Shown here one piece after another: positions 10,830-39,437 of a DNA stretch of 64,000 nt; positions within the stretch are counted from its first letter, which is position 1; each line of letters begins with the position of its first letter. The notes below the pieces were generated by a model. It was not told where the DNA came from, did not search any database, and saw only the letters and a program-made list of their open reading frames with translations. The stretch is from positions 57,290,001 through 57,354,000 of the forward strand of contig NC_045696.1 of the NCBI RefSeq assembly GCF_009834535.1, in the 5' to 3' direction. Origin of the DNA: Camelus ferus. Its lineage: Eukaryota. A program made the translations under genes and the position numbers.

Positions 10830-12250
10830 AGAGATGAATAATGTACAGCATATTGCTGGAGTTAATAATACTGTACTGCATATTTGAAACTTGCTAAAAG
10901 AGTACATCCTAAAAGTTCTCACCACAAGAAAAAAAGATTTTGTAACTATGTGTGGTGACGGACGTTAACTAGACTTATGGTGGTGACTGTTTCACAATAT
11001 ATACTAATATTGAATTGTTATGTTATATACTTGAAACTAATGTTATATGTCAATTACACCTCAATTACAAAAAGTAAGTGGTGAGTGAGTGAATGAAAGA
11101 ACAAACAGATGGATAAATGAGTAAGCCTTCAGTCAGTCTGAGGAAGATGATGGCAGGGATGGGTGGGCAAAGCACCACAGAGAAAACAAAATTAAAGGTT
11201 AACAAAAAGCATTAGCCAGAGCAACAAAATATGTAGCATTATGGCTAAACAAGCTGCAGCTCAGAAAGGTAAGGAAATGACAGCAGTTTAAAAAGATTAA
11301 GAATAGAATGAAGATCTAATGGAAATCTAATGGAAATTCCAGAAGAAGCTAGTAGAGATAATGGAAGCAAGACAATATTCAAAGAGATAATCACTCAGAA
11401 ATGTCTATAACTGAAAAAATTCAAGAGTGTTTAGATTGAAGACATATAGTAAGACATGGACAAGATAAATATAAATCTTACACAGACACTCTAGGTAAAA
11501 ATATGGACTGTAGACAAAGCACAAATCTTTTAATAGCAACTAGAGAGTAGAGAAAGGTTACAAAGGAATAAAATTTTGACTATCAGCAGACTTCTCAAAT
11601 AAATGAGCTGTACACTCACCTAACTTATGCCAGGCTGACAATGTAATCAATATATTTTCAGGCAAAGAAAGCTTTAAAATGTTTACAATTAATAGACCAT
11701 CACTAAGAGAACTACTTGATTCTACTCCAGAAAGAATAAAACTGTGCCCAAAAGGAAAACTAAGGATGAAAAAAGCAATGATGATCAAAGAATTTGAAAA
11801 CTTTATGACAAAAAATAATAATGATAACTTTAAGGGGCATGAAAGCAAGTTTGATCTAAAATAGACAAAAATAACAGTAAAGACTGAAGATGGGGAATTC
11901 ACTGTTAAAAATTCAAAGAGCATTTTATTGTTTGGGAGAAGTATAAACAGAATAATGTCAGAATTTTTAAAATCAAGTAGGTACGTGAAAAAATTAATGG
12001 AAACTTTAAATCTTGCATGTAACTTACATACCATTGTGGGAGAGGGGAAGGGAATACAGTGCAAACTTTCCAACAAAAGGCAGAAAAAGTGGGAAAAAAA
12101 AAACCGAAACACAAAGATAAAGAGGTAGAAATCATTATCCTATCAAACATAAATAGATTTAATCCATGTTAAAATTCTCCAATTGGACTGCAATTAAAGA
12201 GACACACCTATAACTTCAAATTATGCAAGTATAAAGGTAAAGAGGTAGTG
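10830..12250 (+). mobile_element. LINE-1 fragments (3' end ~10830-11072, then old ORF1-like segment)
   Basis: L1 3' UTR motifs (cttgaaactaatgttatatgtcaattacacctcaatt); ORF1-like peptide NRPSLRELL at 11679-11864. Confidence 0.65.
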
Positions 12251-13678: not shown

Positions 13679-14196
13679 CTCTATTTTATTTTTTATAACT
13701 GCATGTTATTCTATGATTATCTCACTCCCTCACCTTCTACTCTTGAAGGATATTTTCCTGAATATAGAATTCTGAGTTGGCAGTTCTCTCCTTTAAGCAC
13801 TTGAAAGATTTTGTTCCACTATCTGTCTTCCTTGGTTTCCGATGAGAAATCTAAAGTCATTTGATCTGGTCTAATTGTCTAATTGATTCATCTTTCTGTT
13901 TATAGACTATGTTTCAACAATCTCACTAAAGAAAATATCCCCTACTCCGAGTCACAAAGATATTGACACACATTTTCTCTTAATATTTCCAAAGTTTCAT
14001 TTTTGACTAATACTTCTGGACTATTTTTCTATGGTATAAAATGTAAATCATTTTCCAGCTGTGGTAGAGACGTGGGGGATTAACCTCATTTGTCTGAGAC
14101 CGTTACAGCAAACACAAGCCCCTTGAAAACACTGCTTTCCAGTTAAATGAATGACTTCATCAGTGTCTTCTTTCTCATAAAGGCTTTCTTTGCCAG

Positions 14197-14314
14197 ATGT
14201 CAGCACCCCTGATGAACAAAATGGCCCAAGAGAACCCCCAGCCAGATCCTTTTATCTATGTGGATGATTCCAGCATGAACTCCCAGGATGATTCACAGTT
14301 ACTGGCTGGTCCCA
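14197..14314 (+). CDS. ARGFX: ARGFX first coding exon: (MSAPL)MNKMAQENPQPDPFIYVDDSSMNSQDDSQLLAGP
   Basis: Acceptor ttctttgccag|, donor ccca|gtgagt (phase 1, matches next exon); ENPQPDPFI matches the recalled human ARGFX N-terminus; in-frame ATGs at 14197, 14212, 14221. Confidence 0.85.
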
Positions 14315-19506: not shown

Positions 19507-19655
19507 AGAAATGGAAGAAGCATCAAGAACGCACCTCATTTACCCAAACACAGCACAAAGAATTGGAGGCACTGTTTAGCTGCAACATGTTTCCAGATAA
19601 AAATCTCCAGAGAAAACTTGCTTTAAAACTCAACCTACCAGACTCAACAGTAAAG
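19507..19655 (+). CDS. ARGFX: ARGFX homeobox exon (homeodomain residues 1-46)
   Basis: ctctacag|ag...gtaaag|gtctg; KWKKHQERTSFTQTQHKELEALFSCNMFPDKNLQRKLALKLNLPDSTVK, open frame, PRD-class intron between residues 46 and 47. Confidence 0.92.
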
Positions 19656-20426
19656 GTCTGTCTGATCCTCTGAGGTGTACTTTGTACCCTCACCCAAATC
19701 ACATTCTACTGTTCAGCCTGGAAATCCCCTCCATAACACAGCAGTAGTAACACTTCTTTTACTGAGTACCTACTGTGTGCTAGTGCTGAGCTGGGCACAT
19801 TGTATATGTTGCCTTCACTGTCATCCAATTTTGGGAGCAAAGCAACTGGGTCACAGAGATAATATGTAGCGTAATTGGAATTAGAACTCCGGAGGTCTTG
19901 TCCTGCAGAGCTCAAATTAGAGGAAGGGATCTCATCCAGACAGACGCCTCACTTAGGGTCTTCTCAAGCAAAACCCTACAATCTGTTTATTCACGACATT
20001 ACCAACAGACAAATAACTTCCCCCAGCTTCTGAGTCTGCTAAGGCCCCCAGTTTTTGTTAGACTAGTCCTCACTGTACAGGCCTTCTAAAATAAGCATCG
20101 AAAATCCCTCAGTTCAAATTCCTTACCTCTGTCTAGATTTCTGAACTTGCTTCTCTTCTGGAGTTCAGGACACTTTCTCTGAACCCCCAGTATAACCTCT
20201 GAAATGTACCCCCTTTATTTCCTTCTCTTCTCTCTGGGGCCCAGTCCTGATCCCTCACTGTTCCTATTGACTCCATTCATACCTACTTCTGCTCTCTCAG
20301 AACTCAGTATCATGGTGACTTGGAGAGAGGGCATGAAGGTTACAGTTTGGCTTTTTTCACCCAGGAGAAGCCTCAAACTCCTTCTTCAGTAACAGACTAT
20401 AAACTCCTCTCTTCCCCCACTCCCAG

Positions 20427-20834
20427 ATTTGGTTCAGGAATCGGCGGTTCAAAATGAGGAAGCAGCAGCAGCAGCAACAGAAATCACTGAAGCCACCAAA
20501 CCAGATCCTTCCAGCCAAGAACGTGTCAACAGCATCAACAAGTCCTCATTTTTTCCCCCCAACAGTTTCAGATTTCTGTAGCTCCTTCTCACCTCAGCCC
20601 TTAGGCCCTTTCAATTGGGTGGGGGACTCTGTTCTCACTGAGAGTCCTACAAGTGATGTCCAAATCCAAGATCCTCAGTTGGAGAGGCTGGTGGCCTCAG
20701 TTCCTGCTTTGTACTCTGATGCCTATGACATAGCCCAAATCATGGAAATGTACAGTTTTCCTGATGAAGATGAGATAGCCAGCTATTCTTTCCACTCTCT
20801 CTATCAGTATCTCTCACCAACAAGGCCCAGTTAG
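20427..20834 (+). CDS. ARGFX: ARGFX last coding exon: IWFRNRRFKMRKQQQQQQ...LYQYLSPTRPS*
   Basis: Acceptor cactcccag|att; helix 3 WFRNRR has Arg50; ERLVASVPALYSDAYDI matches recalled human ARGFX; total 219 aa from ATG 14212. Confidence 0.92.
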   Translation: MWFRNRRFKMRKQQQQQQKSLKPPNQILPAKNVSTASTSPHFFPPTVSDFCSSFSPQPLGPFNWVGDSVLTESPTSDVQIQDPQLERLVASVPALYSDAYDIAQIMEMYSFPDEDEIASYSFHSLYQYLSPTRPS

Positions 20835-21008
20835 AATAGAGTTCCTCCCTTAGCATCTTTGCAGGTCCAGCTGTAGGTTTACCTCCTGGGCAAACCCGGT
20901 TTAGTACAACAAACTGGAGCTTTGCAGCCTTCATCTTAAGAGAGAGCCTAGAATTCCAGAACCCCTCTAGTAGTGTGGTGGACTTTGGATTTCTCTTATC
21001 AAAGTACT

Positions 21009-21014
21009 AATAAA
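21009..21014 (+). terminator. ARGFX: Candidate ARGFX poly(A) signal
   Basis: aataaa, followed later by T/GT-rich sequence. Confidence 0.45.
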
Positions 21015-21724
21015 TGGCAGATAGCATAGAAAAAGGATCTTGCATCTTGTACATACCTTTTCCTTTTGTCTGCTTCTTAAACCAAACATCTGGTTCAGTG
21101 TAACTTTGATTTCCATGGAAATGTTGTAAAAACTAGTTTTCTCCAAGTATAGCTCAGTAGTACATAACCAGCCCCACAACTCCCCCTGGAAAAGGTCTTT
21201 CTAGTCCCTTAGACAGCCGACGAGGCAACAAAATTCCCTCTTCTCAAAACTATCTTTGACTTTTTAAAAGAAGGCCAGCAGCCTTTCAGGTTCATCCACT
21301 TTTAATGGAAGCAGGTTATAAACTCATATTTTATTTTAAATCTTTAGGTCTAGGATTTTCTAAAGGGTATTTTCGGTCAGAATTTAGGGGGAAATCACCA
21401 TCACTATTAGTTTTAATATAGTATAAGTGCATATGTAGTAAGAAATGTAAGAACTGGCAGAGGAAGAGGAAAAACAGATTTTTTGAAAGAGATGATCGTC
21501 AAGGAAAACCAACAAAATCAACAGTGAAACTTTTAGAATTACAGATAAGCACATTTTCCAGCTACGTAAATAACCTACAAAATTAATAGCATTTCTCAAA
21601 ACCAATCATAAACACGTAATAAAATAAGTACCTCTCAATGAAAAGTATAAAGTATCTACGAATTAACTAAGAAAATTAAGACCTGTACAGAAAACTTTAA
21701 AACTTGAATAAAGTTAGGTTGTTT

Positions 21725-36429: not shown

Positions 36430-37315
36430 GTAAGTATGAGGTGCTTATAACACCTTCACCTTTCAGAGGTCCAGGTCTCGCTTCATTTAGCCTGTAGCCC
36501 AAGCAGCTGGCAGGTTTGTCTTTTTAGTCTGATAATATATATTGGCTTTTTGCCGGACAAGATGCTAGAGCAGAACCTAGAAGCAACTGACACAGAGTTG
36601 AGGGCAAGCAGAGAGCTGAGAAAGATTTGAGAGCAAAGATTTTTAGTAAAACTTTCCATTTGAAGAAGCAAAAAATCCAGCTATAATCTAAATGGCTAAC
36701 AATTCCTTCATTCAGCAAAGATTATTGAGTACTTACAGTGGTCCAGGCCCTGTGACAGGTGCTGGGGATGCAGATGTGAACAAAACCAGACATGCCTCAT
36801 ATGCTCCCGGCACGCCCCCTGGTGATAGGTAAAGTTGATTAAATGAATGACAGCACACTCACAGCCATTATGAAGAAAGTATGCAAAGAATAATTAATAA
36901 AAGCCCCCAGACATGTCATAATAGCAAGTTAAAGCCAGATGAAAAATTGTATCCATAGTATTAACTATGTCATATAAATCCTCCATAATCCACAGCTCAG
37001 AAATAACTGACAACCTTGTAGTGCATTACATTCAGCTTTGTTTTTTTCTATTCTCAGCACATCTACTACATACATAGAATAAACTATTGGAAATAAAGAG
37101 AAGACTGTTGATAGTTGTTATCTCTGGGTTGTGGGATTATGAGTGATTTTTGCTTTCTTCTCTATGATTGTCTATACTTTCTGAGGTTCCTGCAATAAGC
37201 ATGTAGCATGTATCAGCAGAAAATAAGTCGATTAAAACACGCTCCCAGACACTCACAGAGCTCCTCTTGCAGCAGTCATTTGTTCTCTCCTTCCCCTTGC
37301 CTTCGGTGTCTCCAG

Positions 37316-39229
37316 GGCCGGGCACGCAGGCCTCCCCCAGGGCAGCACAGGCACTGTGAGAGATGCTTCAACCGGCACTGCCATGTTCCTGTGGAGCCCA
37401 CTGTCTCCTGCCCGGTGATAAGCTGCCGCCTGTCCTGTGGCGCTACCTTCCACATGTGCAAAGAGGAAGAGCACGAGCTCCTCTGCCCTTTAGAGCAGGT
37501 TCCGTGCCTCAACTCCGAATACGGCTGCCCCCTTTCCATGTCCCGCCACAAGCTGGCCAAGCACCTGCACGTGTGCCCCGCCAGCGTGGTCTGCTGCTCT
37601 ATGGAGTGGAACCGCTGGCCGAACGTGGACTCCGAAACAGCCCTTCATGAGAACATCATGAAAGAGACCCCCAGTGAGGAGTGTTTGGACACCGCCCTGG
37701 CCCTCCAGGACCAGAAGGCCCTTTTCAGATCTTTGAAAATGGTAGAGCTTTTCCCAGAAACCAGAGAGCCCACTGAGGAGGAGCCTGCGACCAACGGTGA
37801 ATCCAGCTGGGAGGAAATGGGAGGAGCGGTGGGTGGAGCAGATGCCGGTTTGGTAACACACGGCTCCCTGGCAGCCATGAATGGAGAGGTGGCAGAGCCG
37901 AGCCAAGAAGAACGAGAGGTGTTAGCCAAAACCAAAGAAGGGATGGACCTGGCCAAGTTTGACAAGTGGGAAAATATGTTCAGTAAAGAGCACGCGGCCT
38001 CTGCTTTAACAAGCACATCGGCGAGCCTTGAGAGCAAGTGCAGGAACGGCCCAGAGAAAGAACAGGTTTCCAGCGGCAGTAACTCAGGAGAGGAGGGTGC
38101 TGCCAAGGGGAAAGAATTACAGGGAAACCAGAAGCAGCAGGACTTTAATGCAGCCGTGGAAAAGACAGGGCTTGCCCCTTGGCAGGATGGCGTTCTGGAA
38201 AGGCTGAAGACAGCTGTGGATGCAAAGGACTATAATATGTACCTGGTGCACAATGGGAGGATGCTTATTCACTTTGGTCAGATGCCTGCTTGTACACCTA
38301 AAGAGAGAGACTTTGTTTATGGCAAACTTGAGGCTCAGGAAGTGAAGACTGTTTATACCTTCAGGGTTCCTTGGAGTTACTGTGGGAAGCGGGCTCGCCT
38401 CGGAGATGCCATGCTGAGTTGTAGGCCAAGTGAACACAAGGCAGTAGATACTTCTGATTTAGGGATCACTGTGGAGGACCTGCCCAAATCAGATCTCATC
38501 AAGACCACCCTCCTGTGTGCTTTGGAAAGAGAACTCAAAGGCCATGTCATCTCTGAATCCAGAAGCATTGATGGACTGTTCATGGATTTTGCTACACAGA
38601 CATACAGTTTTGAGCCAGAACAGTTTTCCTCTGGCACAGTGCTGGCTGACCTCCTGACCACTGCCAACCTGAACGGTCTCCACGTGGAGCTCCACAGTGA
38701 GTGTGTGACCAGGAGACACAACAAGAGCAGCTCTGCCTTCACTTTCATTTGCAACAAATTCTTCAGGAGGGATGAATTCCCCCTACACTTCAAGAATGTT
38801 CACACAGACATTCAGTCATGTCTCAATGGCTGGTTCCAGCATCGATGCCCCCTTGCCTACTTGGGATGTACCTTTATTCAAAACCATTTCCGTCCCCCAG
38901 GGCAAAAGGCAAAAGTGATCTATAGTCAGGAGCTCAAGACCTTTGCCATCAAGCCGGATGTTGCTTCAGAGCTGAGTGAGGGAAGAAAGAATAACCGTCT
39001 CTCAGGCCGCGAAGGAAAAAGCCAGAATTCTCTAACCAGCCTGCCCCTGGAGATTTTGCAGTACATTGCTGGGTTCTTGGACAGCATCAGTCTGTCCCAG
39101 CTCTCCCAGGTGTCTGTGCTGATGAGGAATATCTGTGCCACTTTGTTACAAGAGAGAGGGATGGTCCTCCTGCAGTGGAAGAAAAAGAGGTATTCCCATG
39201 GAGGAACCTCCTGGAGAGTTCACAGAAAG
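37316..39229 (+). CDS. FBXO40: FBXO40 exon 3 (638 codons; TRAF-type zinc finger, F-box LTSLPLEILQYIAGFLD)
   Basis: Acceptor gtctccag|ggc; long open frame matching recalled FBXO40; donor aag|gcaagt. Confidence 0.97.
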
Positions 39230-39437
39230 GCAAGTAAATAGTCATTCATTCATTCATTCTTCCCTTCAACAAATACTTATTAAAGACCTTCTATGCACCA
39301 TGCACTGTACTAGACACTGAGATTGTACTAGGTCACTGGGAATAAGACACAGTTTGTGAACCCAGGGAGGTCAGCCTGGTAGAGGAGACAGACCCACAAA
39401 AATAAAAATGGCAGTAGAGATGGTAGTGCCTGTTTCT

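Follow-up and report, generated by a model that had tools for sequence, protein, structure and literature searches.

The window analysed here, that is, the whole stretch of 64,000 nucleotides of Camelus ferus DNA, contains what is very probably a normal camel ARGFX gene with an old short form of the protein, in which two lesions that arose before the camel-ruminant split cut off the former C-terminal tail and left it behind the stop as a neutral relic. In the course of events proposed for this form, one C would have been lost from a run of four before that split, converting ...RPQLE... into ...RPS-stop, and a CAG of the old frame would have become TAG, with the loss of one codon beside this TAG. 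Since then, the old tail would have lain in the 3′UTR, between the new stop and a conserved AATAAA, drifting neutrally, and the homeodomain and a Leutx-like effector block upstream would have stayed under purifying selection. The resulting 238-aa product would be devoid of about 55 C-terminal residues that are still encoded by horse, human, elephant, sloth, and other mammals. Published work is cited below by its PMC or preprint identifier, as represented in the excerpts available of each source.

Gene Model and Identity of the Locus

The coding sequence of ARGFX was found in four exons of the window, given here with the evidence for each in brackets:

11241..11268, + strand: ARGFX coding exon 1, with the ATG at 11241 and donor gtaagg (tblastn of P0001, borders, spliced translation)
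14183..14314, + strand: ARGFX coding exon 2, with acceptor ...ataaag and donor gtgagt (tblastn of P0001, borders)
19507..19655, + strand: ARGFX coding exon 3, encoding homeodomain positions 1-46 (tblastn of P0001; Pfam)
20427..20834, + strand: ARGFX last coding exon, ending in RPS and the TAG at 20832-20834 (100% over 135 aa against P0001)

When spliced at AG/GT borders, the four coding exons gave a frame of 717 nt, encoding 238 aa, with one stop at its end, which bears out the view of the first-pass annotation that the upstream exons are open and have good splice sites. One of the three AG/GT introns splits the homeobox after position 46, and the last exon, which starts at 20427 after ...ccactcccag, resumes the homeodomain from position 47 with IWFRNRR, followed by a Q-rich linker, the conserved PQLERLVASVPALYSDAYDI...YQYLSPT block, and RPS. 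Pfam recognised a homeodomain (PF00046) at aa 61-115 (E 1e-16), in which WFRNRR, encoded from 20430, places an arginine at homeodomain position 50, following the W48-F49-R50-N51 numbering found in the available part of PMC11542365.

The product was identical at 237 of 238 residues to XP_064334088.1, named 'arginine-fifty homeobox [Camelus dromedarius]' by NCBI, and at 234 of 238 to the alpaca protein. The sole difference from XP_064334088.1 lies in codon 56, in which TGG (19512-19514) encodes W, as in alpaca, and the dromedary model presents C. The window would accordingly derive from a different individual, assembly, or species of Camelus. In protein searches that returned 37 and 62 matches, the best match was the dromedary model (100% over the last exon), and most of the matches named by their source were arginine-fifty homeobox proteins. 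The remaining ones comprised homeobox domain-containing or hypothetical proteins and ORFs, the weakest being a fly homeobox protein (E 4e-4). The locus is a normal camel ARGFX, a PRD-class gene with an R50 homeodomain, for which public annotation already gives the short 238-aa protein.

Downstream of ARGFX, a 680-aa ORF (37199-39241, + strand) presented an F-box (E 1e-29) as well as a TRAF-like zinc finger (E 3.5e-40); it is probably the large exon of an FBXO40-like gene, presumably the one that neighbours ARGFX at the human locus. It was also observed that an older dromedary model, P0065 (147 aa), leaves the ARGFX frame in a T/C homopolymer (~20548-20562) after ...STSPHF and then reads SPQQFQISVAPSHLSP, which corresponds to the ORF 20491..20604 of the window, the other frame. 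This frame slip probably reflects an indel in the assembly from which the model was derived.

The Stop and the Stranded Reading Frame

The features found around and beyond the stop were the following:

20826..20828, + strand: C run (ccc), the proposed site of the 1-nt loss that would have turned RPQLE... into RPS-stop (four C in horse, three in cow)
20837..20839, + strand: TAG in the old tail frame (CAG in horse; TAG also in cow)
20840..21010, + strand: putative relic of the old C-terminal tail, now 3′UTR, with 56 open codons and taa
21009..21014, + strand: AATAAA poly(A) signal, the sole AATAAA/ATTAAA in 20835-21400

The main frame (20403..20834, + strand) ends in ...FHSLYQYLSPTRPS (YQYLSPTRPS), with its TAG at 20832-20834. 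The frame offset by one base reads cag tta gaa tag at 20828-20839 and then 56 open codons (SSSLSIFAGPAVGLPPGQTRFSTTNWSFAAFILRESLEFQNPSSSVVDFGFLLSKY), which start with SSSLSIFAGPAVGL and end with SLEFQNPSSSVVDFGFLLSKY, before a taa at 21008-21010. The first-pass annotation had described this arrangement as LSPTRPS-stop in the main frame and QLE-stop followed by 56 open codons (20840-21010) in the shifted one, and it was reproduced exactly at the same coordinates. The shifted frame is no random ORF: its translation matches the C-termini that other mammals encode in frame in ARGFX, with identities of 30/49 for human, 30/44 for manatee, 32/49 for colugo, and 31/47 for sloth. The tail that is found in frame in human, horse, elephant, and sloth (...SLEFQ...GFL) lies in camel out of frame, behind both the TAG at 20832-34 and the TAG at 20837-39. 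Within the relic, GFL ends at 20995, the position of the old stop (20996-20998) is now occupied by tta in camel, and one extra codon relative to cow and human was found by hand comparison among 20969-20980. The human ARGFX transcript is described in the excerpted text of PMC2894831 as polyadenylated ~30 nt past its stop, behind AATAAA.

When the 56-aa tail was searched with phmmer against 1.84 billion representatives, ten matches were obtained at E <= 0.001, five of which were ARGFX-like (P0086, P0087, P0035, P0007, and P0090), with P0086 at 69% (E 8e-8). The other five, namely four proteins (957-7034 aa) matched weakly over many short segments and P0083 (1709 aa), for which no matched stretch was listed, were taken as composition matches. 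No CRX or OTX protein was found among these ten matches, nor in a region search with the manatee tail, which returned three proteins, all of them ARGFX. Pfam placed no family on the tail, nor on human or manatee ARGFX beyond the homeodomain and sub-threshold chance matches. A short motif may escape searches of these kinds. The likeness of the tail to that of CRX, as proposed in the first-pass annotation, concerns its SLEF, which may echo the CRX tail. In the published excerpts, the OTX tail of CRX corresponds to aa 284-296 (PMC10896975), and Maeso et al. described an 'Otx-specific domain' common to Argfx, Leutx, Pargfx, and Otx, in a paper in which ARGFX is counted as an ETCHbox gene and the ETCHbox genes are derived from CRX (PMC4904359).

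Age of the Two Lesions

The lesions were compared at the DNA level with cow and horse by means of Additional file 2 of PMC2894831, a codon alignment written as dots against human, from which the cow row was rebuilt by eye. In the part of this file available, the cow row without its gap signs presents the same 22 letters as positions 20823-20844 of the window, among them the run of three C, the new stop, and the old-frame TAG, whereas the horse row has four C, followed by CAG CTG GAA GAA CAG AGT, with the frame intact. Three changes relative to horse are thereby common to camel and cow: the 1-nt loss, a lost codon, and the change from CAG to TAG. The cow and camel sequences are better read as the outcome of one 1-nt loss plus a nonsense change, common to both. 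The earlier proposal of a 1-nt loss in the C run plus a separate nonsense codon agrees with these rows, with three C and TAG in camel and cow versus four C and CAG in horse. The same bovine end was found in the excerpt of Supplementary Fig. S4 of PMC9117796, in which the wild-type bovine sequence that Lewin et al. expressed ends in ...TCACCGACAAGGCCCAGT, with the linker directly after it, and corresponds to ...YQYLSPTRPS; at the C-run site, this bovine construct ends in ...AGGCCCAGT.

Since the cow carries both lesions, the truncation would predate the camel-ruminant split. Camelids are the first branch among living artiodactyls in the standard phylogeny, and because of this position and of the sharing with cow, the lesions are inferred from these sequences to date to the common ancestor of living Artiodactyla. 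The sharing of the second lesion refers to camel and cow alone, deer, sheep, and whales being known by their protein end. Likewise, the base calls at the lesions rest on other assemblies and species, and that of the TAG at 20837-39 on the cow row alone. Among the 24 sequencing runs listed, 17 hold at least half of the sampled words of 20400-21100, a measure that does not cover the lesion site itself, and the RNA runs X17 and X18 presented word shares of 0.53 and 0.47 over the same interval, which have no bearing on the lesion site or on expression. In the portions available of the ARGFX literature searched, no statement was found on the sharing of the tail loss between camelids and ruminants or on its dating.

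Same Protein End across Cetartiodactyla

Cetartiodactyl protein models from 18 named species were fetched from the annotated proteins among the search matches, and in 11 of these species the protein ends in ...SPT[R/K]PS, namely dromedary, alpaca (two models from two assemblies), white-tailed deer, fallow deer, reindeer, serow, argali, sheep (three isoforms), yak, gray whale, and false killer whale. None of the cetartiodactyl models of the 18 named species reads on in frame through RPQLE without interruption. That the loss is new in the camel genome, as the first-pass annotation implied, is not supported, the ...SPTRPS end being general among cetartiodactyls (cattle, from two papers, besides the 11 named species).

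Other models depart from this end in different ways. The models of two muntjacs (P0003, P0050, P0082) switch after ...RPS to VGLFPGQT..., the fin whale model P0044 jumps from ...FHSL into another frame, the ibex model P0069 splices away after ...LYQ, the humpback model P0081 is flagged LOW QUALITY and frame-adjusted, and the narwhal model stops at ...FHSLY. The goat model P0067 ends in ...YSLYQYL, six residues short of the usual ...SPTRPS end, which may correspond to a further nonsense change or to a model artefact. It was noticed that in P0003, P0050, P0082, P0044, P0081, and P0069 the stop is bridged by frame adjustment or by junctions that fit no canonical camel splice site. Deposited models that bridge the stop in this way suggest, wrongly, that the C-terminus is full-length or novel.

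Outside Cetartiodactyla, the tail was found in frame in human and other primates, colugo, manatee, elephant, sloths, tamandua, armadillo, and black rhino. Because it is lost in camel and 11 named cetartiodactyl species, the tail is not a feature of the ARGFX family throughout. A truncation general across laurasiatherians, named in the first-pass annotation as a finding that would refute it, is largely what was observed: it holds for Cetartiodactyla, with a parallel in bats, but not for horse and rhino, which keep the tail.

In the protein tree, Cetartiodactyla was recovered with a support of 100/97, and camelids were its first branch. Three Logan ORFs (P0007, P0059, and P0046) branch between camelids and the whales plus ruminants. 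P0007 reads ...RPSQNRVPLRIFAGSG..., which implies that the new stop became a sense codon and that a 2-nt loss rejoined the tail frame for ~45 residues. In P0046 and P0059, the recognition helix has NWW instead of NRR and the frame shifts after ...DAYDIDQI, which resembles decay in that lineage. A metagenome scan aimed at host-derived ARGFX DNA from further species yielded 119 pattern matches, none of which was confirmed.

Constraint before and after the Stop

Constraint was assessed from a camel versus cow codon comparison, counted by hand over ~50 codons per part, in which the cow letters came from a PDF-derived alignment. Over the 54 retained codons before the stop, 20 of 162 nt differ, distributed 6:3:11 over codon positions 1:2:3, with nine non-synonymous and 11 synonymous changes, corresponding to a ratio of ~0.26 after a rough 3:1 correction for site numbers. 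Over the 51 aligned codons of the tail, 35 of 153 nt differ, distributed 7:13:15, the residue being changed in 16 codons and the change being silent only in eight. Second positions were changed in 13/51 tail codons versus 3/54 retained codons (Fisher p = 0.006), and the tail rate at positions 1+2 (0.196) is about the retained rate at position 3 (0.204). As judged from these substitutions, this is the pattern of a putatively neutral relic beside a constrained coding block.

An open tail frame persists in camel (56 codons), in cow as far as the old TGA, and in the muntjac and humpback models. A rough neutral simulation gave a chance of 0.10-0.46 per lineage that the tail stays open at 0.08-0.15 substitutions per site. 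Several open lineages together are somewhat unexpected, which constitutes a mild oddity rather than a sign of use, and the open-tail count is biased, because gene models can read the tail only where it is open. The frame-adjusted humpback model implies one more 1-nt indel, with the tail in a third frame, and P0007 implies yet another indel pattern. The openness of the tail was considered as evidence of selection and dropped, given the simulated values and the neutral substitution pattern.

These open frames, whose simulated chance of persistence is just that given above, and a pyrimidine-rich ...tttgcag/g at ~20845-20867 would favour an explanation in which the tail is still made in artiodactyls by a bypass of the stop, either through alternative splicing in the last exon or through ribosomal frameshifting. 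However, such a bypass is very unlikely. The camel-cow substitutions present no coding signature, second positions changing as often as third ones, and a TAG heads the tail frame in both camel and cow. Moreover, camel, a whale model, and an ORF differ by indels over the stretch from the new stop to the tail, the bridging models of muntjac and fin whale depend on non-canonical junctions, and bovine embryo cDNA is described in the accessible text of PMC11542365 as a single ARGFX isoform. A rescue splice (donor tatca/gtatct, acceptor after tttgcag) was sought by eye and rejected, as it removes ~60 nt, has a weak donor, and leads into the wrong frame.

Regions Retained in the Short Protein and Their Probable Function

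A stop in the last exon should escape nonsense-mediated decay, and because the camel stop is placed there, decay of the ARGFX transcript is not expected. Regarding the protein, tiling assays reported in the excerpts of two preprints (bioRxiv 10.64898/2025.12.10.693551; 10.1101/2022.08.26.505496) delimited a single bifunctional effector domain at aa 161-240 of human ARGFX, inside which a 14-aa stretch common to LEUTX was needed for both activities. This human segment ends in ...ELYNLPDEN, and its camel counterpart lies upstream of the stop:

20538..20771, + strand: counterpart of the human ARGFX effector domain, camel aa 141-218 (alignment with human 161-240)

In an alignment of 27 sequences, 12 columns were invariant and 35 nearly invariant, and all of the 12 and most of the 35 were found in the PQLERLVASVPALYSDAYDI...LYQYLSP block. 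A Leutx-shared domain has been described within a conserved C-terminal region with predicted 9aaTAD motifs (PMC6258689, in part), and this domain is taken to be the part retained in camel ARGFX.

ARGFX is active in preimplantation embryos; the bovine cDNA was cloned from embryos as a single isoform (PMC11542365), and the bovine protein was found to be nuclear and to change the expression of hundreds of genes (PMC9117796). According to the former source, as excerpted, bovine ARGFX, unlike the human one, is predicted to have no 9aaTAD motif. In addition, Camelus ferus and cattle ARGFX have been counted as putatively functional (PMC8208926, in part). By analogy with cattle, the short protein is most likely functional, and that of camel would work as a nuclear transcription regulator. 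Of the two outcomes proposed in the first-pass annotation, the functional shortened factor is retained as the most likely one; the alternative of a gene in early decay is not borne out, the frame having remained open from camelids to ruminants and whales, with constraint evident between camel and cow. The locus also differs from what a unitary pseudogene would present, in that the frame is intact through the homeodomain and the effector block and the retained block is constrained.

It could be argued that in artiodactyls the entire locus represents a transcribed pseudogene, the truncation being just one disabling lesion among several. According to Li and Holland (2010), the non-human ARGFX loci are all non-functional, none of them coding for a functional protein (PMC2894831, as excerpted), a 13-bp frameshift (deletion) allele of bovine ARGFX is common and tolerated when homozygous, the homozygotes being viable (PMC9117796, in part), and P0046 and P0059 carry NWW for NRR and the extra frameshift mentioned above. 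Nevertheless, this explanation was considered highly improbable in the face of the frame kept intact in 11 named species and the ratio of ~0.26 (nine non-synonymous versus 11 synonymous changes) in the retained block. It is also opposed by the embryonic expression, nuclear location, and gene regulation reported for bovine ARGFX, and by the treatment of Camelus ferus and cattle ARGFX as putatively functional in later work (PMC8208926).

Origin and Meaning of the Short Form

A recent loss in the camel lineage, representing either early decay or a newly shortened factor, is likewise very improbable. The lesions are real in the window, and ARGFX has been called loss-prone in the available parts of PMC8208926 and PMC2894831; however, the same end is found in alpaca, ruminants, and whales, both lesions are present in the cow DNA row, and the retained frame is intact in those relatives and constrained between camel and cow. 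Finally, a homopolymer assembly or sequencing artefact in a gene that truly reads to ...DFGFL has a negligible probability, for although the first lesion lies in a C run and P0065 shows a frame slip in another homopolymer stretch of the last exon, there are two separate lesions, the NCBI dromedary model, two alpaca assemblies, and nine further named species all have the same end, and the cow DNA agrees in two independent publications (PMC9117796 and PMC2894831, both in part). The argument of the first-pass annotation against a sequencing error was thereby strengthened, the same protein end being found in other assemblies and species.

In this clade, the short tail is nothing unusual but a trait of long standing, probably ancestral in even-toed ungulates and whales, and not a private defect of the camel. 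It has little import for camels themselves, as public annotation already presents the protein with 238 aa and the cattle orthologue, whose end is identical, was cloned and assayed. What is gained, modestly, is a cleaner account of how the ARGFX truncation arose.

Comparison with Other Mammalian ARGFX Genes

Bovine ARGFX resembles that of camel in its retained last-exon block (142/162 nt identical, by hand count), in its ...YQYLSPTRPS end, and in the same two lesions. Nevertheless, the N-terminal exons differ, cattle having an extra 5′ coding exon according to the excerpted text of PMC8208926. The relic tails of the two species are 35/153 nt apart; the old stop is gone from camel, which also has one codon more, whereas the old TGA persists in cow.

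A tail-less ARGFX was also found in bats (Molossus, Phyllostomus, and Glossophaga, and the megabat row in the available part of PMC2894831), in a set comprising four named models, one ORF, and the megabat DNA row (P0013, P0042, P0043, P0051, P0006). The bat stop is placed two residues past the P of ...SPT.P, at apparently the same TAG/TAA as in camel. However, the residue before this P is G or D, and not R as in camel, the megabat DNA having GGC there. Molossus ends in ...SPTDPS, Phyllostomus in ...SPADSS, and Glossophaga in ...SPTDSN; the megabat row continues after ACA with GGC CAC GGC TAA (TGHG-stop), and the same end was found in the ORF P0051. A Hipposideros model, flagged LOW QUALITY, reads on as ...SPTAQLEEQGSS. 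The most economical reading of the bat sequences is that a separate deletion, of an A located a few bases farther upstream, would have led onto the same latent stop, the C run being left unaltered. Among primates, the mouse lemur row of PMC2894831, as excerpted, presents T.. (TAG) at the human CAG column, a nonsense change in apparently the same CAG codon as that altered in camel and cow, and the mouse lemur model ends in ...RSQLGE. Taken at the level of these sequences, the loss of the ARGFX tail is apparently recurrent. It is doubtful, though conceivable, that this loss is convergent and more than tolerated, the tail-less ARGFX having been repeatedly selected as a functional form, for instance one freed of a regulatory or degradation signal carried by the tail.

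Human ARGFX (315 aa, P0014) is like that of camel in its R50 homeodomain, in the position of the homeobox intron, and in the effector block, and the two proteins run parallel to ...YQYLSPT. From this point, the human protein reads on in frame for ~58 residues to ...DSLEFQKTSNMVDLGFL, whereas the corresponding camel stretch is out of frame behind the stop. Since the tail is present in human and missing in bovine ARGFX, functional comparisons of the human and bovine proteins set a tailed against a tail-less protein, and a convergent loss, if true, would contribute to the different target sets of human versus bovine ARGFX.
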